Shown here piece by piece: positions 6,369-47,265 of a DNA stretch of 47,265 nucleotides (position 1 is its first letter; every line of letters starts with the position of its first letter). Source of the stretch: an archaeon RBG_16_50_20. GTDB taxonomy: Archaea; Thermoproteota; Bathyarchaeia; 40CM-2-53-6. The position numbers and the translations under genes are program-made. The notes under the pieces are model-generated. The model ran no database searches, was not told the origin of the DNA, and was given only the letters and a program-made list of their open reading frames with translations. Where the stretch lies: positions 141 through 47,405 of the forward strand of contig MEMY01000047.1 in the NCBI GenBank assembly GCA_001768965.1, in the 5' to 3' direction.

Positions 6369-7157
6369 ATGGAATCAGGCAAAACGAGAAGACTGCGAAG
6401 GCTCTTCAAGGGCGATTCGAAGACCTTCATCATAGCAATGGATCACGGCGTAACATTAGGGCCAGTTCAAGGCCTAGAGGACATGCAGCAAGCGGTGAAT
6501 TATGTTGTGAAGGGTGGGGCTGACGCGGTACTAGTACACAAGGGCATCGCCAAACATGTGAATGCTGGAAATGCGGGGTTGATAATTCACGTCTCAGCCT
6601 CAACCAAACTTGGAGGAAGCCCCAACCTAAAGGTGGGCGTCTGCACACTCGAGGAGGCGATCAGACTGGGCGCTGATGCTGTCTCAGCTCACATAAACAT
6701 CGGAACCGAACACGAGGACAAGATGCTCGAACTCTTGGGGAGCCTTTCGGAAGAATGCGACTCTTTTGGCATACCACTGTTAGCCATGATGTATCCTCGA
6801 GGACCAAACATCAAGAATGAGCATGAACTCGAAGTCGTCTCGCATGCAGCTAGGATCGGAGCTGAACTCGGCGCTGACATAGTGAAGACTGTTTACACCG
6901 GCGAGCTCGAAAGCTTTCGGAAAGTAGTCCGGAGTTGCCCGGTACCCGTTGTGGTTGCGGGCGGGCCGAGAATGAAGACTGATTCGGAGGTACTGGAACT
7001 CGCCGAATGTTCTCTCAAGGCCGGCGCCGCAGGATTATCCTTTGGACGAAACGTCTTCCAGCACACGAGCCCAGAGAGGATAAGCCGTGCGTTGGCCGCG
7101 ATAGTCCATGAGGGCGCGACAGCTCAAGACGCTATGAAGGTGCTGGGATCCTCATGA
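6369..7157 (+). CDS. 2-amino-3,7-dideoxy-D-threo-hept-6-ulosonate (ADH) synthase, DhnA-type class I aldolase family (AroA-prime, MJ0400-like)
   Basis: COG1830-type aldolase pattern (FIIAMDHG, GADAVLVHKG, GADIVKT Schiff-base lysine region, FGRNVFQ). The specific assignment rests on its position immediately upstream of, and overlapping, DHQ synthase II inside the aro operon. Confidence 0.75.
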   Translation: MESGKTRRLRRLFKGDSKTFIIAMDHGVTLGPVQGLEDMQQAVNYVVKGGADAVLVHKGIAKHVNAGNAGLIIHVSASTKLGGSPNLKVGVCTLEEAIRLGADAVSAHINIGTEHEDKMLELLGSLSEECDSFGIPLLAMMYPRGPNIKNEHELEVVSHAARIGAELGADIVKTVYTGELESFRKVVRSCPVPVVVAGGPRMKTDSEVLELAECSLKAGAAGLSFGRNVFQHTSPERISRALAAIVHEGATAQDAMKVLGSS

Positions 7158-8212
7158 TGAAACAGTTCTGGATTCGTCTCGATCCCAAATCGACCCCCGA
7201 ATCCAAAGCGGACCTACTCAACAAAGCCCAGCAACATTGCAATGTGGCCCTTCTCTATCCTCAGGATCTGCCGCTCGTTTCAAACTTGAAGTTGAAAAGC
7301 GCATCCACTGATGCTCGGGCAGATATCGTGATATCAACCGATCTTCGACCTGGTCGGGTTGTTTCAGGAAACATTGCTGCGGAGGTTGTCGTGAAGGAGA
7401 GCTCCGATGAGCAAAAAGCCGTTGAGTTGGCAGAGCTGGGAATTAGATACCTCATAATTCACTGTCCCGATTGGAAGGTCATACCACTCGAAAACCTCAT
7501 CGCGAAAACCCGAAACAAGACAATGTTGCTCGCGGATGTCTCTACCGTATCTGATGCGAAGGTCGCACTCCAAACCCTGGAACTCGGTGTAGACGGTGTA
7601 GTCTTTGCTCCGAGTGTGCCGCAAGAAGTGGAAGACATGGGGGCACTTATGAGAAACAGCGAGCACCACATTGTTTTGCTCAAAACCAAAGTGGTCTTGG
7701 TGAAACCACTCGGCACTGGCGCCAGAGTGTGCGTCGACACATGCGAAATCATGGAACCAGGCGAAGGAATGCTTGTCGGTTCGCAGTCTTCGGGTCTTTT
7801 CCTCCTCGAAGCAGAGGTCCACAGGAACCCTCACGTAGAACCTCGCCCGTTCCGTGTAAATGCAGGACCGGTCTCTTCCTACGTTCTCACTCCTGGATTG
7901 AAAACGCGCTATCTATCCGAACTAAAAGCAGGCGACGAAGTCCTGATCATAAATCGCGCTGGAACCAGTAGAACAGGGCACATTGGTCGAGTGAAAATAG
8001 AGCGACGGCCCATGACGCTGGTCGAAACGGAGTTCAACAATCGTACCTTTTCAATCATAGTCCAGAATGCTGAGACAGTACGCTTGGTTTCAGAGAGCAT
8101 CTCAAAGTCCGTTTCGGAACTCAGACCAGGCGATGAAGTTCTCATTCGTGTTGAAGAAGGCGGCAGGCATTTCGGAACTCTGGTTGCCGATGAAATGGTG
8201 ATTGAGCGCTGA
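7154..8212 (+). CDS. 3-dehydroquinate synthase II (archaeal AroB-prime, MJ1249-like)
   Basis: 352-aa protein starting MMKQFWIRLD, with length and layout of COG1465. The ATGA start-stop overlap with the preceding gene is at 7154-7157. Confidence 0.75.
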   Translation: MMKQFWIRLDPKSTPESKADLLNKAQQHCNVALLYPQDLPLVSNLKLKSASTDARADIVISTDLRPGRVVSGNIAAEVVVKESSDEQKAVELAELGIRYLIIHCPDWKVIPLENLIAKTRNKTMLLADVSTVSDAKVALQTLELGVDGVVFAPSVPQEVEDMGALMRNSEHHIVLLKTKVVLVKPLGTGARVCVDTCEIMEPGEGMLVGSQSSGLFLLEAEVHRNPHVEPRPFRVNAGPVSSYVLTPGLKTRYLSELKAGDEVLIINRAGTSRTGHIGRVKIERRPMTLVETEFNNRTFSIIVQNAETVRLVSESISKSVSELRPGDEVLIRVEEGGRHFGTLVADEMVIER

Positions 8213-8250
8213 CCTGCAAGATCTGCCTCTCTGTCATCCCAGACGCTAAT

Positions 8251-8871
8251 GTGAACATCGATCAACTACTCGCGCAAATCGCCCAGAAGAGGCCAGACCT
8301 TGTGGAGTTCCGCCTAGACAGACTTGATAATCTGACGGCCGTTGAAACCATAGGCCAGAAGAAGACTCTGCCAGCGATCGCAACCGACAAAGCCATCAGA
8401 GAGCCATCCGTAAGCCGCAAGATTCTGCTTGCAGCTGCCAGTTCAAGTTTCGAATATGTTGACATAGACTTCGCGTCACATGATGCGAAGAGGCTCGTAG
8501 AAGAGTGTAGGGCCAAAGGGACTAAGATCATCGTGTCCAGTCACAACTTCAATGGAACACCGTCTCAAAGCGAACTGAGGGATGTATTCAACTCAGTGAG
8601 GGAGATGGAGGCTGACATCTGCAAGATCGTGACGACCGCAACACACCCTCGTGATAACCTAGAAGTACTCAACTTCGTCCAGGAAAAGTGTACAGAGGCT
8701 AAGCTAGTTTCTTTCGCGATGGGTTCACTGGGAACTCCATCTAGGATCCTCTCTCCTGTTTTCGGGGCCGAATTCACTTTCGCAGCCTTCAGTCAAGACT
8801 CCAGGACGGCCGACGGCCAACTTAGTATTGAGGATCTTCGAAGCGTGTGGCATCTACTTGGAATTCAATAG
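8251..8871 (+). CDS. aroD: 3-dehydroquinate dehydratase, type I
   Basis: DLVEFRLDRL, VSSHNFNGTP (catalytic His region) and ADICKIV (Schiff-base Lys). GTG start. Confidence 0.85.
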   Translation: MNIDQLLAQIAQKRPDLVEFRLDRLDNLTAVETIGQKKTLPAIATDKAIREPSVSRKILLAAASSSFEYVDIDFASHDAKRLVEECRAKGTKIIVSSHNFNGTPSQSELRDVFNSVREMEADICKIVTTATHPRDNLEVLNFVQEKCTEAKLVSFAMGSLGTPSRILSPVFGAEFTFAAFSQDSRTADGQLSIEDLRSVWHLLGIQ

Positions 8872-9745
8872 TTCGGCAGTTTCAGGAAAGACGCAGGTTT
8901 ACTGTCTCATAGGCGACCCCGTGGACCACTCGTTGAGCCCAGCAATTCAGAACACCGCCTTCCGATCAGCTGGCATGGACGCCGTCTACGTGCCATTTCG
9001 AGTAAGGAGGAAGGAACTCAAGGATGCGATTCGCGGCTTACGCGCAATTGGTGTACGCGGTTTCAACGTGACCACGCCTCACAAAAGCCATGTTATGCGT
9101 CACTTGGACAAGTTGGACCCCACAGCTCGAGAGATAGGGTCAGTGAACACTGTTGTGGCCAGCGAGAACGGCATGCTAACTGGGTACAACACGGACGGAA
9201 TCGGTGCTGTCAAGGCTCTGCAGGACGCAGGCGCCCCCCTGAACAAAACAGCCCTGTTGTTTGGAGCAGGAGGGGCAAGCCGAGCTATAGCCCACGCGCT
9301 TGCCCGCCATTCGAAGTCGATCAGACTCGTTAATCGAACCCAATCAAAGGCGAGAGAACTAGAACGCCGACTGAGACGGAAATATCGAATTGATGTCTCG
9401 CACCATGCTCTCCTGCGGACTAGACTCCGGAATCTGATCGAGGAGGCTGACATCATCATTAACGGGTCTGCGATGGGAATGGATGGAAGGGCTGATCTCC
9501 CCATCGAGGAAAATTGGCTGAATCGAGACCAATGGGTGATGGATATCGTATACAGACCTCCGGAGACAAGATTGCTGAACCTTGCTGGGCTAGCAGGAGC
9601 GAGAACGCTCAACGGTCTGGACATGCTCGTAAGCCAAGGTGCATGCTCTTTCGAACTCTGGACAGGTCGAGCGGCGGTGATCGCCGAAATGCGTCATGCT
9701 GTTGCGAGAGAATCGTTGGCGTTTGCTCATGCAAAAAACAGCTGA
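8828..9745 (+). CDS. aroE: shikimate 5-dehydrogenase
   Basis: GDPVDHSLSPAIQNTAF, FNVTTPHK, NTDGIG and GAGGASRA motifs. There is no in-frame ATG near the N-terminus. The start is TTG 8828 or TTG 8858, and either one overlaps the aroD 3-prime end. Confidence 0.85.
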   Translation: MRIFEACGIYLEFNSSAVSGKTQVYCLIGDPVDHSLSPAIQNTAFRSAGMDAVYVPFRVRRKELKDAIRGLRAIGVRGFNVTTPHKSHVMRHLDKLDPTAREIGSVNTVVASENGMLTGYNTDGIGAVKALQDAGAPLNKTALLFGAGGASRAIAHALARHSKSIRLVNRTQSKARELERRLRRKYRIDVSHHALLRTRLRNLIEEADIIINGSAMGMDGRADLPIEENWLNRDQWVMDIVYRPPETRLLNLAGLAGARTLNGLDMLVSQGACSFELWTGRAAVIAEMRHAVARESLAFAHAKNS

Positions 9746-10610
9746 GGCAGTGTGCCATGGGGCAGTGACAGTCGTAAACGCCATGGCAACGGGCAAAGGT
9801 GCTGCACTCGGTATCAACCTCTGGACAAAGGCGCGAGTGACCGTCACGGACCGAACAAGCTCATTCATAGGACGCAATGTGACCGATCCCAAGGAAGACA
9901 CAAGACTGATGCAGATCACGGCTCAGCATGTCCTGAGAAAATTTCAGGCACATCGCAACTTCGGTGCCATTGTAGAGACTCGCTCCAACATACCCGTAGC
10001 TGTGGGTCTGAAAAGTAGCAGCGCTGCTAGCAACGCCGTCGCATTGGCAACTTTGAGAGCCCTTGGAAGAAAAATGAGCGATTACGCGACGGTGAACTTA
10101 GCAGTTGACGCGAGCCTCAAGGCGGGAGTGACGCTGACTGGAGCGTATGACGACGCCTTAGCCTGCTATGTTGGTGGCCTTGCGGTCACAGACAATTATC
10201 ACCGCCGAATTCTGAAGCGTTACAAACCAAGAGGACGAGCACGTGTCTTGATTTACGTGCCAGAAGGCAAGAAGTACACCAAGGACGTTGATCGTAAACA
10301 GTTGCGCAACATTGCGCCTTCAATTGGCGTGGCGCACCGTGAAGCACTCAAAGGCAATTATTGGTTATCACTGACACTAAATGGCCTCGCCTACTCTAAG
10401 GCACTTGGATACGATGCGCAACCGGCTAAGCAAGCGCTTGCAACGGGCGCGATTGCTGCTGGGCTCTCAGGCAAAGGACCAGCGGTTGCAGCTATAGTTC
10501 CGTCTTCGAAAGTTGAGAATGTTCTGTCGGTGTGGACCTCACTTCCAGGGCGCGTCGTCGTGACCTCGTTCAATTACAGGAAGGCGGAAGCTAGGAGTCT
10601 GACAAGTTGA
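9729..10610 (+). CDS. archaeal GHMP-family shikimate kinase (MJ1440-like)
   Basis: GAVTVVNAMATGKGAALGI and the GHMP motif NIPVAVGLKSSSAASNAVALA. The ATG at 9729 overlaps the aroE end by 17 nt. Confidence 0.8.
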   Translation: MQKTAEAVCHGAVTVVNAMATGKGAALGINLWTKARVTVTDRTSSFIGRNVTDPKEDTRLMQITAQHVLRKFQAHRNFGAIVETRSNIPVAVGLKSSSAASNAVALATLRALGRKMSDYATVNLAVDASLKAGVTLTGAYDDALACYVGGLAVTDNYHRRILKRYKPRGRARVLIYVPEGKKYTKDVDRKQLRNIAPSIGVAHREALKGNYWLSLTLNGLAYSKALGYDAQPAKQALATGAIAAGLSGKGPAVAAIVPSSKVENVLSVWTSLPGRVVVTSFNYRKAEARSLTS

Positions 10611-11872
10611 ACGTTACGATCATTCCTAGGAAGGATCTGTCAGGGGAAATAACTGCTCCCCCGTCGAAAGCCCGAACCCATCGCGCTCTAGTGGCTGGAC
10701 TATTGTCAAAGGGCGTGACCAATATCAAAAATCCATTATCATGTGACGACACGAAAGCCACTCTACATGCCGTGGTAACCTTAGGGGCGAAAGTCGACCG
10801 AACTCCGGGCAGTTGGATTGTTGAAAGTTCCGGATTTCCTCATCATCCGAATAATGAGATCTACTGCGGGGAATCGGGTGCCACTTTGCGCTTTTTGATT
10901 CCTATCGCTTCTCTAACTAAGAGCGAGGTCGTTTTCGCCGGAAAGGACAATTTGATGCGGAGACCAATCAACCCCCTAGTCGAGGCGTTGTTTGAGCTGG
11001 GGGTCGAAATGACTATCCATCAGGACAAGATCAGCGTCCGTGGAGAGCCTGCGGGTGGAACCGTTCACATTAGAGGCGATGTAAGCTCCCAGTTCATTTC
11101 AGGCCTGCTTCTCGCGGGTCCACTAATGCCGCGAGGACTAAGAGCTGAACTTACCTCACCGCTTGAGTCGCGCAAGCATCTTTCGCTAACACTTGAGACA
11201 ATGGAGCAGCATGGCATCGACGTCGCGACGGACCATGAAATGTCTTTCTTTGAGATTGGATCAGGGAAGGCGTATTCTCCCGCCGATCACCGAATCCCTG
11301 GCGACTTTTCGTCCGCGGCCTTCCTGCTGTCCGCTGCAGCGATTACCCATTCCGAATTGCTTGTGCGTGGGCTCCCATCGAGTGATCGAGAGCCAGATGG
11401 TCTGGTTGTGGAGATCCTGTCTCTGATGGGAGCTAGATCGTCTGTCATTGATGAAGGTGTTTTAGTAATTGGAGCGAAACTCAGAGGAACTCGTGTGGAT
11501 CTACGTGACAATCCGGATCTTGGGCCGATAGTGGCTGTCTTGGGGTGTTATGCGGAAGGAGAAACAATAATCGAAGGTGCTGCGAGATTGCGATACAAGG
11601 AATCAGACAGATTGGCCACAATTTCGTCCGAATTAGCGTCGCTCGGTGCCAGGATTAGCGAAACAGAAGATGGTTTGAATGTTCATGGTCCCTGTTCGCT
11701 GAATGGCGGGATTGTTCGCTCACATGGAGATCATAGAATCGCAATGGCGTTATGTGTGGCGGCTCTCGGAGCTAATGGTGAGGTTCAGATTCAGGGTGCA
11801 GAGTGCGTCAGCAAGTCGTATCCAAGCTTCTTTGATGATCTACGGTCACTAGGAGTGGAAATAGTTGAGTGA
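10607..11872 (+). CDS. aroA: 3-phosphoshikimate 1-carboxyvinyltransferase (EPSP synthase)
   Basis: PPSKARTHRALV, GESGATLRFL, SSQFISGLLLAGP and GDHRIAMA motifs. The TTG start overlaps the upstream stop (TTGA at 10607-10610). Confidence 0.9.
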   Translation: MNVTIIPRKDLSGEITAPPSKARTHRALVAGLLSKGVTNIKNPLSCDDTKATLHAVVTLGAKVDRTPGSWIVESSGFPHHPNNEIYCGESGATLRFLIPIASLTKSEVVFAGKDNLMRRPINPLVEALFELGVEMTIHQDKISVRGEPAGGTVHIRGDVSSQFISGLLLAGPLMPRGLRAELTSPLESRKHLSLTLETMEQHGIDVATDHEMSFFEIGSGKAYSPADHRIPGDFSSAAFLLSAAAITHSELLVRGLPSSDREPDGLVVEILSLMGARSSVIDEGVLVIGAKLRGTRVDLRDNPDLGPIVAVLGCYAEGETIIEGAARLRYKESDRLATISSELASLGARISETEDGLNVHGPCSLNGGIVRSHGDHRIAMALCVAALGANGEVQIQGAECVSKSYPSFFDDLRSLGVEIVE

Positions 11873-12968
11873 TAGCTCATTCGGAAAGGAATTCTGCGTC
11901 ACCATATTCGGCGAAAGTCATGGCCCGGGAGTCGCCACACTGATCGATGGTTGTCCAGCTGGGCTCAAACTCAGCATTGAGGACATACAAGTCGATCTTG
12001 ATCGCAGATTGCCGACGGATCCAACAATGACCTCAGCGCGACGTGAGCGCGATGAGGTTCAGATAATCTCAGGTGTTTTCGAAGGTTTCACAACTGGCGC
12101 TCCCATCGCGATGCTAACGTGGAACAAGGAGGTTCGATCTCAGGACTACGACAAGTTGAAGGTTGTTGCCAGACCGGGCCACGCTGATTTTCCCACGAGC
12201 GTAAAGTATGGTGGTTTCAATGATATCCGTGGAGGTGGCCGCGCTAGCGGCAGGATGACCGTACCCATCATGATGGCAGGCGGTGTGGCCAAGAAACTGC
12301 TCCTTCAAATCGGTGTCGAAATCCTCGCCCACACAGTTCAGATTCACACCATCAAACTGGAACGCAAACTATTGCTTCAGACGGTAAAACAAGTGGCGTA
12401 CACAAACTCTGTTCGTTGTGCAGACCCTGAGACGGCTGAGAGAATGATTGAGCGAATTCGCCAGGCACGGGGCGAAGGAGATAGTGTAGGTGGGATCGTC
12501 GAGTGCATCGCTGAGGGAGTTCCGACTGGCATAGGTGATCCGTTCTTCGACAGCCTTGATGCAGATCTCGCCAAGGTCGCTTTCAGCATACCCGCCGTGA
12601 AGGGTTTTGAGGTCGGTTTGGGATTTGGAGCCTCAGTGATTAAGGGATCTGAGAACAATGACCCTTATGCTGTTCGTGATGGAAAGGTTGTAACGTTGAC
12701 CAACAATTCTGGCGGTATACTTGGCGGCCTATCGAACGGCATGCCTATAGTTGTGCGCGTCGGATTCAAACCACCTTCGTCGATTCCGAGGGATCAGCAG
12801 AGCGTCAACCTAGAAGAAATGAAAGACACATCGGTCCGAGTCACCGGTCGGCACGATCCGTGCGTTGTACCTAAAGCGGTTCCCGTAGTTGAGGCAGCGG
12901 TCGCTATCGTGCTCGCGGACCACTGTCTGCGCGCCCACGTAATTCCGCGAGTCATAGGGAAGAAATAG
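11865..12968 (+). CDS. aroC: chorismate synthase
   Basis: FGKEFCVTIFGESHG, RPGHADF, GGGRASGR and GRHDPCVVP motifs. The TTG start overlaps the aroA end by 8 nt. Confidence 0.9.
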   Translation: MSDSSFGKEFCVTIFGESHGPGVATLIDGCPAGLKLSIEDIQVDLDRRLPTDPTMTSARRERDEVQIISGVFEGFTTGAPIAMLTWNKEVRSQDYDKLKVVARPGHADFPTSVKYGGFNDIRGGGRASGRMTVPIMMAGGVAKKLLLQIGVEILAHTVQIHTIKLERKLLLQTVKQVAYTNSVRCADPETAERMIERIRQARGEGDSVGGIVECIAEGVPTGIGDPFFDSLDADLAKVAFSIPAVKGFEVGLGFGASVIKGSENNDPYAVRDGKVVTLTNNSGGILGGLSNGMPIVVRVGFKPPSSIPRDQQSVNLEEMKDTSVRVTGRHDPCVVPKAVPVVEAAVAIVLADHCLRAHVIPRVIGKK

Positions 12969-12973
12969 CTGTA

Positions 12974-13855
12974 CTATTCAGCGGACATTGCGACAGCGGC
13001 ATTGAATCTTTCGTAAGTGGTCGAAAACGTTCTATCGCGTTCAAGGAAACGGCGACTTGAACGTAGATGTCTAATGATGCGGTTCCGTTTTCCCTTTTTT
13101 AGCATGCTTAAAGCCGCGTTGCATTGGCGAATGTATTTCTGGAGGACTTTCATTGACTGACTATTGTCTATGAATATGGAGGCCTCGTTTTCGAGGTTTT
13201 CCTGGGATATGGCTTCAGCGATGAGAAGTTGAAGTCTGAAAGTCGTTCCGGAGAGCTCGCGGAGTCGATCAGGATCAAATCTCATGACCCTCAGAGTGTT
13301 GACCATGACCAGATTGAGGAAATGAGGTAAAGTCAGTAATGCTGACATCAGTGCCTCGTGTTCTTTGATGCTGCAGAGTATTACTTTCGCGCCTCTTTTT
13401 CGGAAAAGTGACAGGATTCTTCTTGCGTGAATATTTCGCGACGGAATTGAAGTTGCCAATACGGTTCGGCCTTTAAGCGTCTTTGCGCCTGGGCCAAACA
13501 TTGGATGAATACTTAGTATAGGGACACCTCGTTTCCTGAGCCTTTGGAGTATTCTCCTGAGCGGTTCCTTTACTGACGAGATCTCCACCACCAACGACTC
13601 AGGTGCAAGAAACTCTGAGACCTGGTTCAGGATTTTCCTTGTAGCTTGGGTGGGTGTAGCTAGGACGATTATCTGAGACGATCGGATGGCGCGCTTTTGA
13701 TCCTCAGCGAATCTAAGATTTCTCTTGCGAGCTACGGTTCTAGCCACACTTTTGTTCCTATCGCAAATCACCACTTGGTAGTTGCTTTCTTTGAAGAAAG
13801 TTCCGAACCATGCTCCCATTCGTCCGGCTCCGCCGACAACGGTCACAACGACCAA
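12974..13855 (-). CDS. tyrA: prephenate (or arogenate) dehydrogenase
   Basis: N-terminal Rossmann motif VVGGAGRMGAWF and an internal HPMFGP motif typical of TyrA. It overlaps the upstream chorismate-mutase/aminotransferase gene by 13 nt. Confidence 0.75.
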   Translation of the reverse strand: MVVVTVVGGAGRMGAWFGTFFKESNYQVVICDRNKSVARTVARKRNLRFAEDQKRAIRSSQIIVLATPTQATRKILNQVSEFLAPESLVVEISSVKEPLRRILQRLRKRGVPILSIHPMFGPGAKTLKGRTVLATSIPSRNIHARRILSLFRKRGAKVILCSIKEHEALMSALLTLPHFLNLVMVNTLRVMRFDPDRLRELSGTTFRLQLLIAEAISQENLENEASIFIDNSQSMKVLQKYIRQCNAALSMLKKGKRNRIIRHLRSSRRFLERDRTFSTTYERFNAAVAMSAE

Positions 13856-15261
13856 GCGTCTATCGCCTTTCCGATTGCCTTGACGGCTCCGGGGATCTTA
13901 GCCGCTGGCAATGAGACTGCTAATCTGAAGAATGCGGGGTAGTTGCCGAAGGCTTGTCCCGGACTGATGCTCACACGATGTTGCTCCAAGAGTTGTTTAG
14001 CGAACCTTACAGAGTCGAAGTTGGGTTTGTTCGCTCTCGGGAAGACGTAAAATGTGCCATCGGGCCTGTAAAATGAAACGTCAATTTTGCCAAGTTCTCG
14101 GCACGTAAGCTCTACCTTCTTCATGATGGCGTTGATATTGCGTTGCGCCTCGCGTCGGCCCTTCTTGATGGCTACTAGGGCTGCGTTCTGAATGAATTCT
14201 GGAACGCACGTCGCAACTGTCTGGATGACTCGCTTAATCCGCATTGCGTTCTCTTTTGTCGTTACTAGGTATGCAATTCTCCATCCGGTCAGACTGAACT
14301 GTTTGGAAAAGCTATTGACGTAGATGTAGTTCTCCCTTCCGCTTTCGAGTATGCTTGGTGCCCTGGCCCGCACGTACTTATCGTACACTTCGTCTGAGAG
14401 TACTAATGCTTCATAGCGTTGAGCTAGTTCGATAATCTCCTCGAACTTGCTCTTGCTGATGATCTTGCCAGTCGGATTGCTCGGAGTATTGAGGATTAAC
14501 ATGCGCGCTCCTTTTCTCAACTCAGTTTCAAGTTTTCCAACATCAATCTCCCATCGCTCCTCCAATGTTGTATTAAGTGGGATCACTCGGCCCTTGATGA
14601 AATCCACGCACTCCTCGTAGGCAGGCCATGCGGGCTGCGGTATCACCACTCGCTCTATTTGAGAGACGAAACCTGCGATACTGGCGAAAATGCCGAATCT
14701 TCCGCCTGGAGTGATCAAGATCTGATCCGGCTCAATCTCAGTGTCGTGCTCCACATTGAGTTCATCAGCGAGCGCCCTTCTGAGTTCTGGCAAACCAGCG
14801 GCAGGTCCGTATCCAACGATTTTCTTCTTCCTGAATGTTTCAGTAAGTCCCTGGATTACTTGTGGAGATGCAGGGAAGTTCGGTTCCCCAATCTCAAAGC
14901 GCGTAACCCGCTCTCCTTTGGAACTAAGGCGAAGGGCGAGTTCGACGACTTCCTTCAGAAGCTGATCCTTTGATTGTCTTGGTTTGCCTTGCTCTTCAAC
15001 CCGGATCGTCTCCTCGATTAGGAGTTCTCCGAACCTCCTCGCGAACTCCGTGCTTAAACCCAGTTCCCTGGCAGCATGTGCGAGATTACTTAACGCGCTT
15101 TGTTCCGCGTCCGTGTCGATGATGGGTAGGCCTTTAGACTGTTTGACCTCTGCCATCTTGTCGGCGATTGAGAATCTTTCGCGGATCAACCTGAGGAGCT
15201 GTTTATCGTTCTCTCGAATTCTAGTTCTGTATTCTTCGAGTGTGCTCAAGATAGATCTCAC
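13843..15261 (-). CDS. fusion protein: AroQ-type chorismate mutase domain (N-terminal, about 90 aa) plus class I pyridoxal-phosphate aminotransferase
   Basis: The N-terminus (YRTRIRENDKQLLRLIRERFSIADKMAEVKQSKGLPIIDTDAEQ...FGELLIEETI) looks like the CM_2 helical domain. The remainder carries the aminotransferase I/II motifs NTPSNPTGK and SFSKQFSLTGWRIAY (PLP lysine). Confidence 0.7.
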   Translation of the reverse strand: MRSILSTLEEYRTRIRENDKQLLRLIRERFSIADKMAEVKQSKGLPIIDTDAEQSALSNLAHAARELGLSTEFARRFGELLIEETIRVEEQGKPRQSKDQLLKEVVELALRLSSKGERVTRFEIGEPNFPASPQVIQGLTETFRKKKIVGYGPAAGLPELRRALADELNVEHDTEIEPDQILITPGGRFGIFASIAGFVSQIERVVIPQPAWPAYEECVDFIKGRVIPLNTTLEERWEIDVGKLETELRKGARMLILNTPSNPTGKIISKSKFEEIIELAQRYEALVLSDEVYDKYVRARAPSILESGRENYIYVNSFSKQFSLTGWRIAYLVTTKENAMRIKRVIQTVATCVPEFIQNAALVAIKKGRREAQRNINAIMKKVELTCRELGKIDVSFYRPDGTFYVFPRANKPNFDSVRFAKQLLEQHRVSISPGQAFGNYPAFFRLAVSLPAAKIPGAVKAIGKAIDAWSL

Positions 15262-19037: not shown

Positions 19038-19505
19038 TCAACCACCAATTTTCTGAGTGAGGAGCGAATTCGAGTAGAAGACAACTAACAGTACAACGAG
19101 CGTGCCGACTATCAATAGTAGATAGGCGTTGCGGGGTCTATATGCATACCTAGTGCTGCGGAGCAACATGTACAATCCCCCAAAGCCAAGCATGTAGAGA
19201 AAACCTGCGATGAGGCTTTCATTGATAGTCTGCTGTCCCAAAGTTCCTGGAATCAAAACCTTGTATCCTCCTGGGGTAGGGAGAAGCGAGATCGGATGTT
19301 CGAGGATGTCGTAAATTCCACCCATAAGGATGAACGTCACAATGCCCAGTACGAGAATGAGCAGAACTGTCGTTGAGGGTTTCCTCCGCGAACCTGGCCC
19401 CCTGAAGATTCGGAGAGAGTATCCTAAGTTGCCGAATTTACGTTGAAGCTTCCAAGGCAATTTGCGCAGTCTTATTCGAAGTCCTTCGAGCATTCTCCAC
19501 AGCAC
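19038..19505 (-). CDS. small membrane protein resembling eukaryotic OSTC/DC2 (Ost3/6-type oligosaccharyltransferase accessory subunit)
   Basis: 155 aa with three C-terminal TM helices. By-eye alignment to human OSTC, recalled from memory:
- FILMGGIYDILEHP versus FLITGGIIYDVIVEPP
- GQQTINESLIAGFLYMLGFGGLYMLLRS versus [27 protein letters not shown]
- NAYLLLIVGTLVVLLVVF versus NRFLLLFIGFVCVLLSFF
Needs a profile search. Confidence 0.45.
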   Translation of the reverse strand: MLWRMLEGLRIRLRKLPWKLQRKFGNLGYSLRIFRGPGSRRKPSTTVLLILVLGIVTFILMGGIYDILEHPISLLPTPGGYKVLIPGTLGQQTINESLIAGFLYMLGFGGLYMLLRSTRYAYRPRNAYLLLIVGTLVVLLVVFYSNSLLTQKIGG

Positions 19506-19530: not shown

Positions 19531-19538
19531 TAAAATAT
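19531..19538 (+). promoter_or_regulatory. candidate TATA box (TAAAATAT)
   Basis: Lies about 45 nt upstream of the ATG at 19580. Confidence 0.25.
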
Positions 19539-21451: not shown

Positions 21452-24229
21452 ATGAAATTGTCGGCAACTCGGCGAGCTCTCAGGAAGCTCAGAGACTTCC
21501 TAGGTAAATACGTTAATCGCGAAGTCCTCGCCGAGCGTGTCCAAGGCAGTCGTAAAGCGCTGTCCGAAATCTCACGCGGAACAGCCCTTGAAGCATTCGC
21601 CCTAGGATTGGTCGTTGTCATCGCTCTTGCCGTCCGCTTGATGCCGATTCGCTGGGGATTCTACCTCAACGAATTCGACCCCTACTTACAATGGCGCATG
21701 GCGCAGTACGTAGTCGATCACGGCTTCCTTGCCTGGTTCAGGTGGCATGACACGATGAGCTGGTATCCGTACGGCGCTGACATGCCTACATGGAATCTCT
21801 ACGGCGAGGCCTTCGTCGTAGCTGCCATTACAATGTTCCTCCGAGGTGTCGGCGCGAATGTGGCCACGTTCGACGTTGCAGTTGTCTTTCCGGTGGTCGC
21901 GGGAACACTAACGGTTCTGGCGGCTTACTTTCTCGGAAAGGACATCTGGGGGAAGGGCGTTGGTATGTTCACAGCCCTATTTCTAGCTCTCAACGCCAGC
22001 AGTATAGGCAGAACCCAGCTTGGTTTTCTCAGACATGAGCCACTCGGTATCCTCCTCATGATTCTCATTTTTCTGTTCTTCAGACGTGCGATGTCGGAGA
22101 ATTCTTCGACCCGTAGGACGATAATGTACGCAACCCTGGCCGGGCTATCTCTCTACTACCTTGCTGCTTCGTGGGCAGCCGCTTACTTCCCACTTGACCT
22201 GTTAGTACTCTATGTGATCGTCTTGGGAATTATGGGACGTTCATCGAAGAAGCTCTTCCTAACCTACTCCATCTGCATGGGTATCTTTCTCCTCTTCACA
22301 CCGTTCCTTGTGCCCAAGCTCGGGTTAGGTTCGCTGACGAATCTGAGTTGGCTGGCCGTTATTGCTGGAGAGGTCGTTCTCCTCGTCCGGCAAACCTCAA
22401 CATATCTCGAGACTCGAAGAATGCAGCTACTGACTCTTGCCGGGGCCTCGATCGCCACAGTAGCCGTAGTTTTCGTGCTCTCATACTTCAACATCATTTC
22501 AAACCCCAGTGGAAAATTCTATGCCGTACTCAACCCACTCGTGAGAGGAGATATTCCAATAATTCAGAGCGTTGCCGAGCATCAACCGGCAACGTGGGGC
22601 TCTTTCTTCTACGAGTTTGGCACGATACTCTTTCTCACGCTCTTCGGATTTTTCTTCATTTTGCAGAGAGGTAGGAATGACGACATCTTTCTAGTTCTCT
22701 GGGGGGTTACCTCCGTGTATTTTGCCGCCTCGTTCGTCCGTCTGACGCTCATTCTGGCACCCGCCTTCTTGATTTTGGCGGGAATAGGTGCTGTGGAACT
22801 AGGGAAACCCGCTGTTGACATAATAAGAGAAGCCGTCATCTATCCGAAGCGTAAGACGCGGGTCATAGCAAGGATCGGGAGGGAATTTGGTGTGGCTATC
22901 TTCCTCATCTTACTCATCTTGGTAGTTCCATCGTTTTGGAGGGCGGTTCAGGCCTCTTATCAACCTGCAACCATCGTAACCTCCAGCATTCCAACTATCC
23001 CATCAGGAGGGAACGAGTTGCGTTATGCTGACTGGCTTGAGGCGTTGTCATGGATGCGTGAGAACACGCCTAAGGGATCAGTGGTCTTCGCTTGGTGGGA
23101 CTACGGTTACTGGATTACTGCACTTGGTGATCGTAGAAGTCTTGCGGACAATGGTACCCAAAACGCTACTCAAATTGGCATGATCGCGCAGGCCTTTCTT
23201 TCGAATCAGACATTCGCTATGCCAACACTGCAACGTTACAATGTCTCCTACGTTGCCATATTCATCACGCCATCAGGAGGAGGGCAGGGGCAGCAAGCCA
23301 CTTTCCAAGGTTTCGGTGAGGACGGAAAATGGTACTGGATGGCCCGGATTGGAAACAACACAATGTGGAACAACTACAAAGTCGTCTTCTTGGAAAAACA
23401 GGACCCGCAAGCCCAATCGTCAACTTACTATCGGGTCATCTACAATGGCACGCAAGTTGTGGGCAACGAGACCATCGCGGACAACAATAAACTCAATGAC
23501 AAAACGATGTTAGGCTACATGATGGACAGAGCAACGCTCCAGACTCAGGTCCAACAAATTCCGTACTTCACTCAATCGTTCTCTTCAACGAACCGTTACG
23601 TCTTTCTCTTCAATGTGAACTACGTGACTGAAACCGAGATCAAACTCCGACCGATACGAAGCCCGATAGACTACGGCCAGAACGTCTCGATCGCGGGCAA
23701 TCTCACAGACAAGAATGGCAGACCATTGGGGACCGTGATGGGGGTTGATGTGGAATACTCCCCGAATGGTCAGACATGGAATAAAGTAGACACAATCCCA
23801 GCTGCGGAGAAAGATGGAAGCTTCAATTTCACTTGGACTCCAAATGGCGGCAAGTACCTGGTGCGCGCAAACTACCTTGGAACCGAAGGCATATTCGTTC
23901 AATCCACAAGCGACCCTCAACAGCTAGAGGTCAGGAGGCTGAACATTACAATGACCGTCAGAGCCTCAACTACGACCGCGACCCTTGGACAAAACGTCAC
24001 ATTCTACTGGAACATGGAGCCGTTAGTCAAAGGTGCGAATGTTACACTCTTCTACACGCTCGACAATAGGACCTACCAGAAAATCAAGAGCTTCATAATG
24101 ACATCTCCTTCGATGAATTATACATGGAAGGTTACCGTTTCAGGCACGTTCAGGGTTTTGATTGCCTTCGCTGGAAACGAAAACTACTACGAAGCTCTGA
24201 GTGCCCCTGTAATGATGAAGGTAGCTTAA
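21452..24229 (+). CDS. aglB: dolichyl-phosphooligosaccharide-protein glycotransferase AglB, STT3-type, with two C-terminal Ig-like modules
   Basis: Multi-TM N-terminal half with NEFDPY (first DxD-type motif) and SVAEHQPATW. WWDYGYWI starts at nt 23093 and is followed by DNGTQNATQI. Length 925 aa. Confidence 0.9.
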   Translation: MKLSATRRALRKLRDFLGKYVNREVLAERVQGSRKALSEISRGTALEAFALGLVVVIALAVRLMPIRWGFYLNEFDPYLQWRMAQYVVDHGFLAWFRWHDTMSWYPYGADMPTWNLYGEAFVVAAITMFLRGVGANVATFDVAVVFPVVAGTLTVLAAYFLGKDIWGKGVGMFTALFLALNASSIGRTQLGFLRHEPLGILLMILIFLFFRRAMSENSSTRRTIMYATLAGLSLYYLAASWAAAYFPLDLLVLYVIVLGIMGRSSKKLFLTYSICMGIFLLFTPFLVPKLGLGSLTNLSWLAVIAGEVVLLVRQTSTYLETRRMQLLTLAGASIATVAVVFVLSYFNIISNPSGKFYAVLNPLVRGDIPIIQSVAEHQPATWGSFFYEFGTILFLTLFGFFFILQRGRNDDIFLVLWGVTSVYFAASFVRLTLILAPAFLILAGIGAVELGKPAVDIIREAVIYPKRKTRVIARIGREFGVAIFLILLILVVPSFWRAVQASYQPATIVTSSIPTIPSGGNELRYADWLEALSWMRENTPKGSVVFAWWDYGYWITALGDRRSLADNGTQNATQIGMIAQAFLSNQTFAMPTLQRYNVSYVAIFITPSGGGQGQQATFQGFGEDGKWYWMARIGNNTMWNNYKVVFLEKQDPQAQSSTYYRVIYNGTQVVGNETIADNNKLNDKTMLGYMMDRATLQTQVQQIPYFTQSFSSTNRYVFLFNVNYVTETEIKLRPIRSPIDYGQNVSIAGNLTDKNGRPLGTVMGVDVEYSPNGQTWNKVDTIPAAEKDGSFNFTWTPNGGKYLVRANYLGTEGIFVQSTSDPQQLEVRRLNITMTVRASTTTATLGQNVTFYWNMEPLVKGANVTLFYTLDNRTYQKIKSFIMTSPSMNYTWKVTVSGTFRVLIAFAGNENYYEALSAPVMMKVA

Positions 24230-46094: not shown

Positions 46095-47265
46095 CTACCT
46101 TCCAGATCGCTCAAGCGCCGCCAACGTGAGTAGCGGAAATATCACCGTTGCATCTCCGATAATAGTTGCGAGCTTATTCGCGCGTTTGATCTTCCCCCAG
46201 CTAATTGCCTCCTCAAGCGGCGCTCCGCTTGCTCCTCCACCTTCGGGACGATCCAGCGTGATCTGAATCGCAGCATCCACTCCACCCCGGTACGAATTTG
46301 CGATCAGTACATGGTGCTTGGGCATTCCACCTCCGAGGATGATGACGCCTACTTTCTTGGACTCATAGGTCATGTCGACGAGTTTGGAAAAGTCCTTGAA
46401 GGGATTGATGAAGAGAGTGTGGAGTCGACTATAGGTCCACAGATTTAGCCCAAGCATTGAATCAAATATCCCTGGACAGAACACGGGAACTGAGCGTTTC
46501 TGGGCGATGTTCAGAAGTGATCGGTTGTCTCGAAGTTGTTATCACCGTTGCATCTCCGATAATAGTTGCGAGCTTATTCGCGCGTTTGATCTTCCCCCAG
46601 CTAATTGCCTCCTCAAGCGGCGCTCCGCTTGCTCCTCCACCTTCGGGACGATCCAGCGTGATCTGAATCGCAGCATCCACTCCACCCCGGTACGAATTTG
46701 CGATCAGTACATGGTGCTTGGGCATTCCACCTCCGAGGATGATGACGCCTACTTTCTTGGACTCATAGGTCATGTCGACGAGTTTGGAAAAGTCCTTGAA
46801 GGGATTGATGAAGAGAGTGTGGAGTCGACTATAGGTCCACAGATTTAGCCCAAGCATTGAATCAAATATCCCTGGACAGAACACGGGAACTGAGCGTTTC
46901 TGGGCGATGTTCAGAAGTGATCGGTTGTCTCGAAGTTGTTTGCCGAATTCCCATAGTAATTCGTAACTTGCGATGTTGCGACGTTTTGTTTCAGGAATGC
47001 GTGTTAGCATTTTGTGTGTGGTTTTTTCCAAATGCTCTATGGCCTTTTGCTTGACCAATAGGTCGTAAATTCGAGACAATCCTCTTCGTTTCAAGGTCGT
47101 ATCGTTCATGGTCTCGGAGCCTACTATGTGTCTGTGTCCTAAAGCTTCCAGCATGTCGTGAGTCACATTGGCTCCTGTTGTGACTACGCCGTTCAGCAAC
47201 TTCTGATCTACAAGGTCTGTAAGTACGGTCCTTAGGCCACCTGGAACAATCGGACCCGCCAACGA
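46095..47265 (-). pseudogene. dys: deoxyhypusine synthase, 5-prime end outside the window, reading frame broken (as assembled) by a 400-bp tandem duplication
   Basis: DHS motifs (VVTTGANVTHD, VFCPGIFDSMLG, IILGGGMPKHH, GGGASGAPLEEAISWGK). The track splits it into 46462..47262 and 46095..46484, which share 120+ identical residues. Confidence 0.85.
46141..46940. repeat. perfect 2 x 400-bp tandem direct repeat
   Basis: 46141-46540 and 46541-46940 are identical base for base on inspection. The junction reads cgaagttgtt|atcaccgttg. The match extends by one base (t at 46140 and 46540). Confidence 0.95.

Follow-up and report, generated by a model that had tools for sequence, protein, structure and literature searches.

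The stretch of DNA analysed here at its full length of 47,265 nucleotides, referred to below as the window, corresponds to positions 141 to 47,405 of contig MEMY01000047.1 (assembly GCA_001768965.1) from the archaeon RBG_16_50_20, a member of the Bathyarchaeia in the Thermoproteota. Its minus strand carries a gene for a small membrane protein related to human OSTC/DC2, a subunit of the oligosaccharyltransferase (OST), and 1.95 kb from the start of this OSTC-like gene lies the start (position 21452) of the gene for an STT3-type AglB, the two genes being divergently oriented. The window is otherwise of housekeeping character, with a shikimate operon, genes for primase, PCNA, GINS, aIF2α, Nop10 and SRP54, and further genes for translation and RNA processing.

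The open reading frame (ORF) of the OSTC-like protein occupies 19038..19505 on the minus strand and gives 155 amino acids (aa) if read from the GTG at 19505, which is the length stated in a preliminary description of this DNA. This GTG adds four residues that are seen in no homologue, and the close database homologues (n > 120) are 151–153 aa long and begin with MLEGL or MFEGL; the comparison thus indicates that the ATG at 19493 is most likely the true start and that the protein has 151 aa. Residues are numbered from this ATG below unless stated otherwise. The charged N-terminus and the three transmembrane (TM) helices given in the preliminary description were borne out, whereas the length had to be corrected. 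Compared with seven relatives, the gene showed dN values of 0.14–0.25 and saturated synonymous sites, owing to which dN/dS (about 0.09, NG86 method) was computable in only one of the seven comparisons. The ORF is a genuine gene under purifying selection.

Homology to OSTC/DC2

A phmmer search with the window protein against 177,635 PDB sequences returned human OSTC as the top match (E = 3.7e-6), with aa 41–154 (155-aa numbering) aligned to OSTC residues 26–144 of 149, and the next unrelated match had an E value of 6.6. The three human OSTC segments quoted in the preliminary description match PDB chain 6s7o_H letter for letter, and their alignment to the window protein is exactly the one proposed there. 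A profile of close Bathyarchaeial homologues matched human OSTC at E = 2e-7. When 1.84 billion cluster representatives were searched exhaustively, 180 clusters were recovered, nearly all of them of 110–180 aa and with the same motifs, and the broad family profile of 117 sequences taken from that search matched human OSTC at E = 2.7e-19 over residues 19–145 of 149, the next unrelated PDB sequence appearing at E = 0.77. The same profile matched MagT1 at E = 1.1e-8 over TM2–4 and yeast Ost3 at E = 0.12. The most strongly conserved positions of this profile are all identical in human OSTC; they are the GG-x-Y motif that closes TM1, a Gln and a Glu before TM2, a glycine in TM2, a serine in the loop, a glycine in TM3 and a lysine in the C-terminal tail.

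Against the Pfam family OST3_OST6 (PF04756), the window protein gave E = 4.3–4.7e-5 (23.4–23.5 bits) over profile positions 180–287 of 294, a stretch of the profile that covers the C-terminal TM bundle. For several close homologues a PF04756 match is already precomputed, and 89 of the 117 family members match the model individually (E < 0.01; best 6e-13). The profile comparison suggested in the preliminary description is therefore significant both for the single sequence (PF04756, E = 4.7e-5; OSTC, E = 3.7e-6) and at the profile level (E = 2.7e-19). The XrtX-associated membrane protein family (NCBIfam NF046082) was considered as another candidate and rejected: the window protein reaches 21.9–22 bits (E = 1.1e-4) against a cut-off of 75 bits, and only 1 of the 117 members matches this family (E < 0.01), so that no unrelated family provides a better match than OST3_OST6. 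We regard the homology of the window protein to OSTC/DC2 as close to certain.

Predicted structure and protein layout

An AlphaFold2 (AF2) model of the OSTC-like protein, built on the alignment of 117 sequences, had a mean predicted local distance difference test score (pLDDT) of 92.1 and a predicted TM-score (pTM) of 0.73, and contained three long helices preceded by two short ones at the N-terminus, with a β-hairpin in the outside loop. In a Foldseek search of the PDB, the top four matches were human OSTC/DC2 (8pn9_H, 6s7o_H, 8b6l_J and 9n9j_J), with target-normalised TM-scores of 0.66–0.87 and root-mean-square deviations (RMSD) of 1.9–2.8 Å, and yeast Ost3 and Ost6 and human MagT1 followed with target-normalised TM-scores of 0.63–0.84. 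The top 11 matches were all OSTC, Ost3, Ost6 or MagT1, and anything else had an E value of at least about 4. The fold comparison put forward in the preliminary description thus came out in favour of DC2: the model superposes on it, the lumenal-type β-hairpin included, at an RMSD of about 2 Å (target-normalised TM-score 0.79–0.87 and RMSD 1.9–2.4 Å in the better superpositions).

Hydropathy analysis placed hydrophobic segments at aa 37–65, 93–111 and 120–147. Lysines and arginines number 12 in the N-terminus and 4 in loop 2 (TM2–TM3) but 1 each in loop 1 and the C-terminus, an asymmetry from which, by the positive-inside rule, an N-in/C-out topology is predicted. The topology raised in the preliminary description can accordingly be given as three TM helices with a predicted N-in/C-out orientation. 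The resulting layout is summarised in Table 1. In the N-terminal extension, the AF2 helices span aa 2–10 and 14–29, and a conserved K-x-P-W motif, in which K11 and W14 are invariant and P13 is nearly so, resembles KKPPW of human DC2. The β-hairpin of the extracellular loop is followed by the nearly invariant Q88 and then an N-E-S motif (human DC2: GQYIMEG). The short cytoplasmic loop between TM2 and TM3 is the best-conserved block of the protein within the Bathyarchaeia, and K148 in the C-terminal tail is aligned with the lysine of the human DC2 tail that ends in MKLP. No thioredoxin match, Cys-containing motif, fourth TM helix or other Pfam domain was found in the protein. Having neither a thioredoxin domain nor a fourth TM helix, the protein is DC2/OSTC-like and not Ost3/6-like.

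Table 1. Features of the window discussed in the text, with the predicted topology of the OSTC-like protein
Feature	Coordinates	Strand	Description
OSTC/DC2-like coding sequence, 151 aa	19038..19493	−	ATG at 19493, stop codon 19038–19040
Basic cytoplasmic N-terminal extension, aa 1–39	19377..19493	−	12 K/R, 1 D/E; two short predicted helices
TM1, aa 40–61	19311..19376	−	Ends in family-wide GG-x-Y-D motif (human DC2: GGIIYD)
Extracellular loop, aa 62–92	19218..19310	−	Predicted β-hairpin, aa 71–73 and 76–78
TM2, aa 93–111	19161..19217	−	Conserved glycines G103 and G106
Short cytoplasmic loop RSTRYAYRPRN, aa 112–122	19128..19160	−	4 Arg
TM3 and short extracellular C-terminal tail, aa 123–151	19041..19127	−	Nearly invariant K148
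TATA-like element	19531..19538		TAAAATAT
Zinc-ribbon gene, 58 aa	19580..19756	+	CxxC...CxxC
STT3-type AglB, 925 aa	21452..24229	+	STT3 N-terminal TM domain, STT3/AglB core, C-terminal Ig-like (Big_3_5) domains
C-terminal part of AglB, aa 737–925	23660..24229	+	About 190 extra residues with Ig-like Big_3_5 domains
Aromatic amino-acid biosynthesis cluster	6369..15261		Compact cluster
Deoxyhypusine synthase	46095..47262	−	Two overlapping ORFs at the window edge

Occurrence in Bathyarchaeia and relation to Asgard proteins

A scan of one genome per species of the Genome Taxonomy Database (GTDB) detected relatives of the OSTC-like protein in at least 248 genomes, the best 80 of which were examined. 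Essentially all of these best 80 of 248 belong to the Bathyarchaeia, and their proteins are about 28–82% identical to the window protein; a few of the contigs bear bin names that are bacterial or otherwise different but show the Bathyarchaeial synteny, and are therefore probably mis-binned. By this distribution, the window is a piece of a Bathyarchaeial chromosome. Among 150 listed representatives, about 37 were clearly Bathyarchaeial, about 16 Asgard-like, one was a eukaryotic OSTC (P0268) and about 96 were divergent and without a lineage label. A profile of the divergent subgroups retrieved proteins that NCBI names as Thorarchaeota, Hodarchaeales and Heimdallarchaeota, and the family is therefore that of the known Asgard ‘OST3/OST6’ signature protein. 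The Bathyarchaeial proteins are 34–38% identical to the labelled Asgard sequences. The OSTC-like family is native, conserved and widespread in Bathyarchaeia and thus not an Asgard-only signature.

The public records consulted name the proteins ‘hypothetical protein’, and NCBIfam holds no model for the family. Three members of 119–157 aa with three TM helices (P0050, P0083 and P0316) carry the JGI label ‘phosphoglycerol transferase MdoB-like AlkP superfamily enzyme’, which looks like a propagated annotation error. A divergent subgroup represented by P0260 (L085 3827–4219; 130 aa, PF04756-positive) is surrounded by HVO_0163-type helix–turn–helix (HTH) regulators and Big_14/CARDB surface proteins, with no STT3, and may be a functionally distinct branch of the family.

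In Heimdallarchaeota (L081 10001–10453) and Thorarchaeota (L083 10001–10462), the OSTC-like gene lies between the gene for ribosomal protein P1 (Ribosomal_60s) and the cluster of ribosomal proteins S10 and S7 and elongation factor (EF), and a PDDEXK/HTH gene follows that for P1. This translation-gene neighbourhood may be relevant to a role coupled to the ribosome or translocon. About 2 kb from the Thorarchaeota gene (L083 12316–13599, −; L084 2718–3965, −) is encoded a protein of 415–427 aa whose matches to OST48_N (E = 7.9e-6) and to GIFT-domain families lie below threshold and which is possibly Wbp1/OST48-like; WBP1 homologues have been reported from Heimdallarchaeia only (Eme et al., 2023; PMC10307638).

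Genomic context of the OSTC-like gene

The synteny of the OSTC-like gene was counted in the 76 loci at which a search with the window protein picks up the homologue. The gene is convergent with that for CDP-archaeol synthase (CarS) in 71 of these loci and adjoins RadB in 72. Linkage to STT3 was counted over 51 Bathyarchaeia loci whose flank on the STT3 side extends for at least 8 kb, and an STT3 homologue was located 2.3–7.8 kb from the OSTC-like gene in 41 of them, comprising all 17 loci in the clade of the window and 24 of 34 in clades whose OSTC-like protein is about 30–40% identical. This linkage is conserved synteny of a housekeeping block and not an operon, and the proximity of the two genes is weak functional evidence.

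The 58-aa zinc-ribbon gene next to the OSTC-like gene is divergent from it, and the intergenic region of 74–86 bp contains the TATA-like element listed in Table 1. This zinc-ribbon gene is kept upstream of GcvT in 59 of the 76 related loci. Farther away, the aromatic amino-acid cluster has the order archaeal-type DeoC-family aldolase, dehydroquinate (DHQ) synthase II, DHQ dehydratase (DHQase), shikimate dehydrogenase, GHMP-type shikimate kinase, 5-enolpyruvylshikimate-3-phosphate (EPSP) synthase and chorismate synthase, with prephenate dehydrogenase and a chorismate mutase–aminotransferase fusion on the opposite strand. At the edge of the window, deoxyhypusine synthase is divided between two overlapping ORFs of 266 aa (profile positions 38–280) and 129 aa (164–286), pointing to a frameshift, partial duplication or an error in sequencing.

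The neighbouring STT3-type AglB

The window AglB matched Pfam STT3 (E = 1.1e-35) and STT3-PglB_core. Its best PDB matches were human STT3A (E = 1.1e-73, aa 40–638), yeast Stt3 (2.3e-60) and STT3B (8e-58), whereas the solved AglB proteins of Pyrococcus and Archaeoglobus were matched at E = 1.6e-10 to 7.5e-4 and in the C-terminal core only. Judged by these matches, the window AglB is a eukaryote-type STT3 much nearer to human STT3A than to the solved euryarchaeal AglBs, and the preliminary description was right to call it strongly eukaryote-like. The likeness to STT3A agrees with the proposal that eukaryotic Stt3 is of proteoarchaeal origin, on the TACK/Asgard side (PMC4973528).

The C-terminal Ig-like extension of AglB belongs to the clade of the window, whereas the STT3 homologues of more distant Bathyarchaeia clades have about 680–800 aa and lack such a tail. 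In a distant Bathyarchaeia clade (L028 2996–3856, −), a Glycos_transf_4 gene (E = 3.2e-21) of the AglH/Alg7-type GlcNAc-1-P transferase family directly follows STT3 and forms a small glycosylation pair with it; no Glycos_transf_4 gene adjoins AglB in the window. A Pfam scan of nearly all window ORFs of at least 110 aa detected no OST-subunit or glycosylation gene other than AglB, and no SecY, SecE or Sec61β gene was found among the scanned ORFs.

Discussion

The protein encoded in the window shares with human OSTC/DC2 (6S7O chain H, 8B6L, 8PN9 and 9N9J) its size (151 aa as against 149 aa), three TM helices, the Ncyt–Cout (lumen) topology, which is predicted here, and the absence of any thioredoxin domain. 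Both proteins also have a cytosolic N-terminal extension, a β-hairpin in the outside loop between TM1 and TM2 and a short C-terminal tail with a conserved lysine, and they are about 28–29% identical over 113–121 aligned residues, with an RMSD of about 2 Å. They differ in that the host here is an archaeon with a plasma-membrane AglB, the N-terminal extension of the window protein is far more basic, the cytoplasmic-loop motif STRYAYRPRxAY occurs in the archaeal proteins alone, and the window shows no sign of other OST subunits. The three TM helices are likewise homologous to, and superposable on, TM2–4 of yeast Ost3/Ost6 and human MagT1/TUSC3 (6EZN, 6C26, 7OCI, 8AGC and 6S7T); however, those proteins have a signal peptide, a lumenal CxxC thioredoxin domain and an extra TM1, none of which is present in the window protein, and the similarity in sequence is much weaker than that to OSTC.

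The Asgard ‘OST3/OST6’ proteins (arCOG14980; for example those of Heimdallarchaeota P0305, Thorarchaeota P0284 and strain MK-D1) resemble the Bathyarchaeial proteins in their length of about 150 aa and their three TM helices and in having no thioredoxin domain, and the same profile recovers both groups. A published AF2 model of an STT3/OST1/OST3-6 complex includes the OST3/6 protein of MK-D1 (PMC11417166). Apart from the difference in lineage, Asgard against Thermoproteota/TACK, the genes differ in their surroundings, being located beside those for ribosomal proteins S10 and S7 and EF in Asgard archaea and beside CarS and RadB, a few kb from STT3, in Bathyarchaeia. Asgard genomes carry homologues of Ost1, Ost4 and Ost5 and sometimes of Wbp1, Swp1 and Ost2 (PMC10307638), and such homologues were not seen in the present window.

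Two alternatives concern the origin of the likeness to OSTC. The protein might belong to an unrelated family of small membrane proteins whose hydrophobic helices match OSTC by chance or composition. The single-sequence Pfam score of 23.4 bits, under the gathering threshold of 27 bits, counts against homology and for such a match, as does the XrtX-associated family, which is matched with similar strength; the low score is, however, attributable to the weighting of the Pfam model towards eukaryotes and not to an absence of homology. Against chance stand the near full-length profile match to OSTC, far ahead of the next unrelated PDB sequence, the contrast between 89 and 1 of 117 relatives for PF04756 and the XrtX family, the return of OSTC, Ost3, Ost6 and MagT1 chains alone by Foldseek, and the identity in human OSTC of the polar and glycine residues conserved across the family. 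Chance similarity is excluded by these profile, family-wide Pfam, Foldseek and XrtX results, and we give this alternative practically no weight. Alternatively, the gene could have been acquired recently from an Asgard archaeon or a eukaryote, or could be assembly contamination, as might be supposed of a family earlier reported mainly from Asgard archaea and eukaryotes. Its presence in at least 248 GTDB species genomes, with Bathyarchaeia making up essentially all of the best 80 across their wide range of identities, its constant position beside CarS and RadB (about 71 of 76 loci) and its identity of just 34–38% to labelled Asgard sequences all speak against this. Class-wide conserved synteny over such a range of identity argues for long vertical inheritance in Bathyarchaeia, and recent transfer or contamination is very improbable.

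We consider the best explanation, and a probable one, to be that the protein is an archaeal member of the OSTC/DC2 branch that acts as a membrane-embedded accessory subunit of AglB. In human cells, DC2 has an experimentally determined Ncyt–Clum topology with three TM helices, docks STT3A to Sec61, is unstable without STT3A and requires its C-terminal lumenal tail for assembly of the STT3A complex (PMC5674889). Its lumenal β-hairpin contacts the Sec61α plug and Sec61γ, and its N-terminal extension runs along the cytosolic face of the membrane (PMC12804085). In yeast, the three TM helices of Ost3 pack on TM10, 11 and 13 of Stt3, and TM2 helps form the groove for the lipid-linked oligosaccharide (LLO) (PMC7226087). 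Because every characterised family member behaves as a subunit of this kind, we infer the same role here, and the statement that the protein is an AglB subunit may be taken as fairly probable. The lysine of the C-terminal tail, the β-hairpin and the N-terminal extension are kept in the archaeal family, and docking on the same face of AglB is therefore proposed. The OSTC-like protein would dock onto AglB at its TM10/11/13 side, in the manner of DC2 on STT3A and of Ost3 on Stt3, and would contribute to the shape of the groove through which the dolichol-linked oligosaccharide enters. In a more speculative step, the outside β-hairpin and the cytoplasmic N-terminus might hold AglB beside the SecYEβ channel, so that nascent secreted proteins would be glycosylated while emerging. 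Coupling of AglB to the translocon by this protein is a tentative suggestion, to which we give less than even weight.

The serious rival among those considered accepts the protein as a true homologue within the OSTC/Ost3 family but not as an AglB subunit, and gives it another membrane role, for example that of a SecYEG- or ribosome-associated factor on its own or one related to ion transport, as was once proposed for MagT1/TUSC3 and is reflected in the Pfam name ‘transporter family’. Several points weigh against an AglB subunit and mostly in favour of this rival. The OSTC-like gene and STT3 form no operon: they are on opposite strands at every linked locus, and the GcvT and zinc-ribbon genes lie between the OSTC-like gene and AglB in the window, joined in many other clades by a 704-aa topoisomerase-like gene. 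STT3 was absent within 10 kb at 10 of the 34 distant-clade loci, which are 10 of the 51 informative loci overall, and the linkage that is seen may reflect phylogenetic inertia. The preliminary description was correct on the distance of 1.9 kb; however, with opposite strands, intervening genes and a block that is syntenic class-wide, the proximity is weaker evidence than was implied. In the Heimdall and Thor contigs, STT3 was not within 10 kb of the OSTC-like gene, which resides in the ribosomal protein/EF cluster, and the divergent P0260 subgroup occurs in an unrelated context with HTH regulators. KCP2 and Ost4 help DC2 and Ost3 assemble in eukaryotes, and neither is evident in the window, though no search was aimed at either. 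The association of the protein with AglB or SecYEG is a suggestion drawn from homology. On the other side, DC2, Ost3, Ost6, MagT1 and TUSC3 are all STT3-bound OST subunits, and DC2 is unstable without STT3A; a protein of 151 aa with three TM helices is unlikely to be a stand-alone transporter; conservation from archaea to human extends to the region of the C-terminal tail, which DC2 requires in order to assemble with STT3A; and the host has a eukaryote-like AglB, a type of enzyme that works with subunits of this sort. We therefore judge a role independent of AglB to be less likely, and retain the AglB accessory subunit as the preferred interpretation. Taken as a whole, the preliminary description was partly supported: the homology is real, the OST complex is putative and the argument from proximity is weak.

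The archaeal OST has been described as a single-subunit enzyme in reviews (PMC8993221; PMC7226087), and Lombard (2016) found no homologues in prokaryotes for the OST subunits that are not catalytic. Eme et al. (2023) treated homologues of Ost1 and Ost3 as known from earlier reports in Asgard archaea and as otherwise absent from prokaryotes, and, as regards occurrence in TACK, their supplementary tables cover Asgard ancestors only (PMC10307638). A single sentence in Carilo et al. (2024) places OST1 and OST3/6 in eukaryotes as well as in TACK and Asgard archaea (PMC11417166). The view in the preliminary description that accessory subunits had mainly been discussed for Asgard lineages therefore holds in part: the family is the same as the Asgard ‘OST3/OST6’ eukaryotic signature protein, and its presence in TACK had already been stated in 2024. 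The gene in the window is an essentially unannotated addition to a known family, whose occurrence in the lineage had earlier been mentioned just in passing, and the significance of the finding is tempered by that one-sentence report.

The DC2/OSTC-type nature of the archaeal proteins and their spread in Bathyarchaeia nevertheless seem under-appreciated, DC2 having been discussed as a trait tied to STT3A in metazoa and multicellular plants (PMC5674889). All archaeal members seen, Asgard included, have the DC2/OSTC architecture and not that of Ost3/6. The archaeal proteins match OSTC with far better scores than they do MagT1 or Ost3, which hints that the thioredoxin-less form may be ancestral in the Ost3/6/OSTC family. 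A further-reaching scenario would give Bathyarchaeia a two-subunit, OST-A-like OST in which the DC2-type protein docks AglB on SecYEβ for co-translocational N-glycosylation, with the thioredoxin-less form being ancestral and predating the split of Asgard and TACK; we hold this scenario to be rather doubtful. If it were true, the DC2 architecture would not be a ‘eukaryotic signature’ specific to Asgard archaea, nor would it be an innovation that arose late in metazoa and plants and is tied to STT3A, and translocon-coupled glycosylation would predate eukaryogenesis. If the protein binds AglB, the origin of the multi-subunit OST would move back before the divergence of Asgard and TACK, and the Bathyarchaeial pairs would offer a minimal two-component system for the role of the Ost3/DC2 TM bundle in the LLO groove, in stability and in coupling to the translocon.

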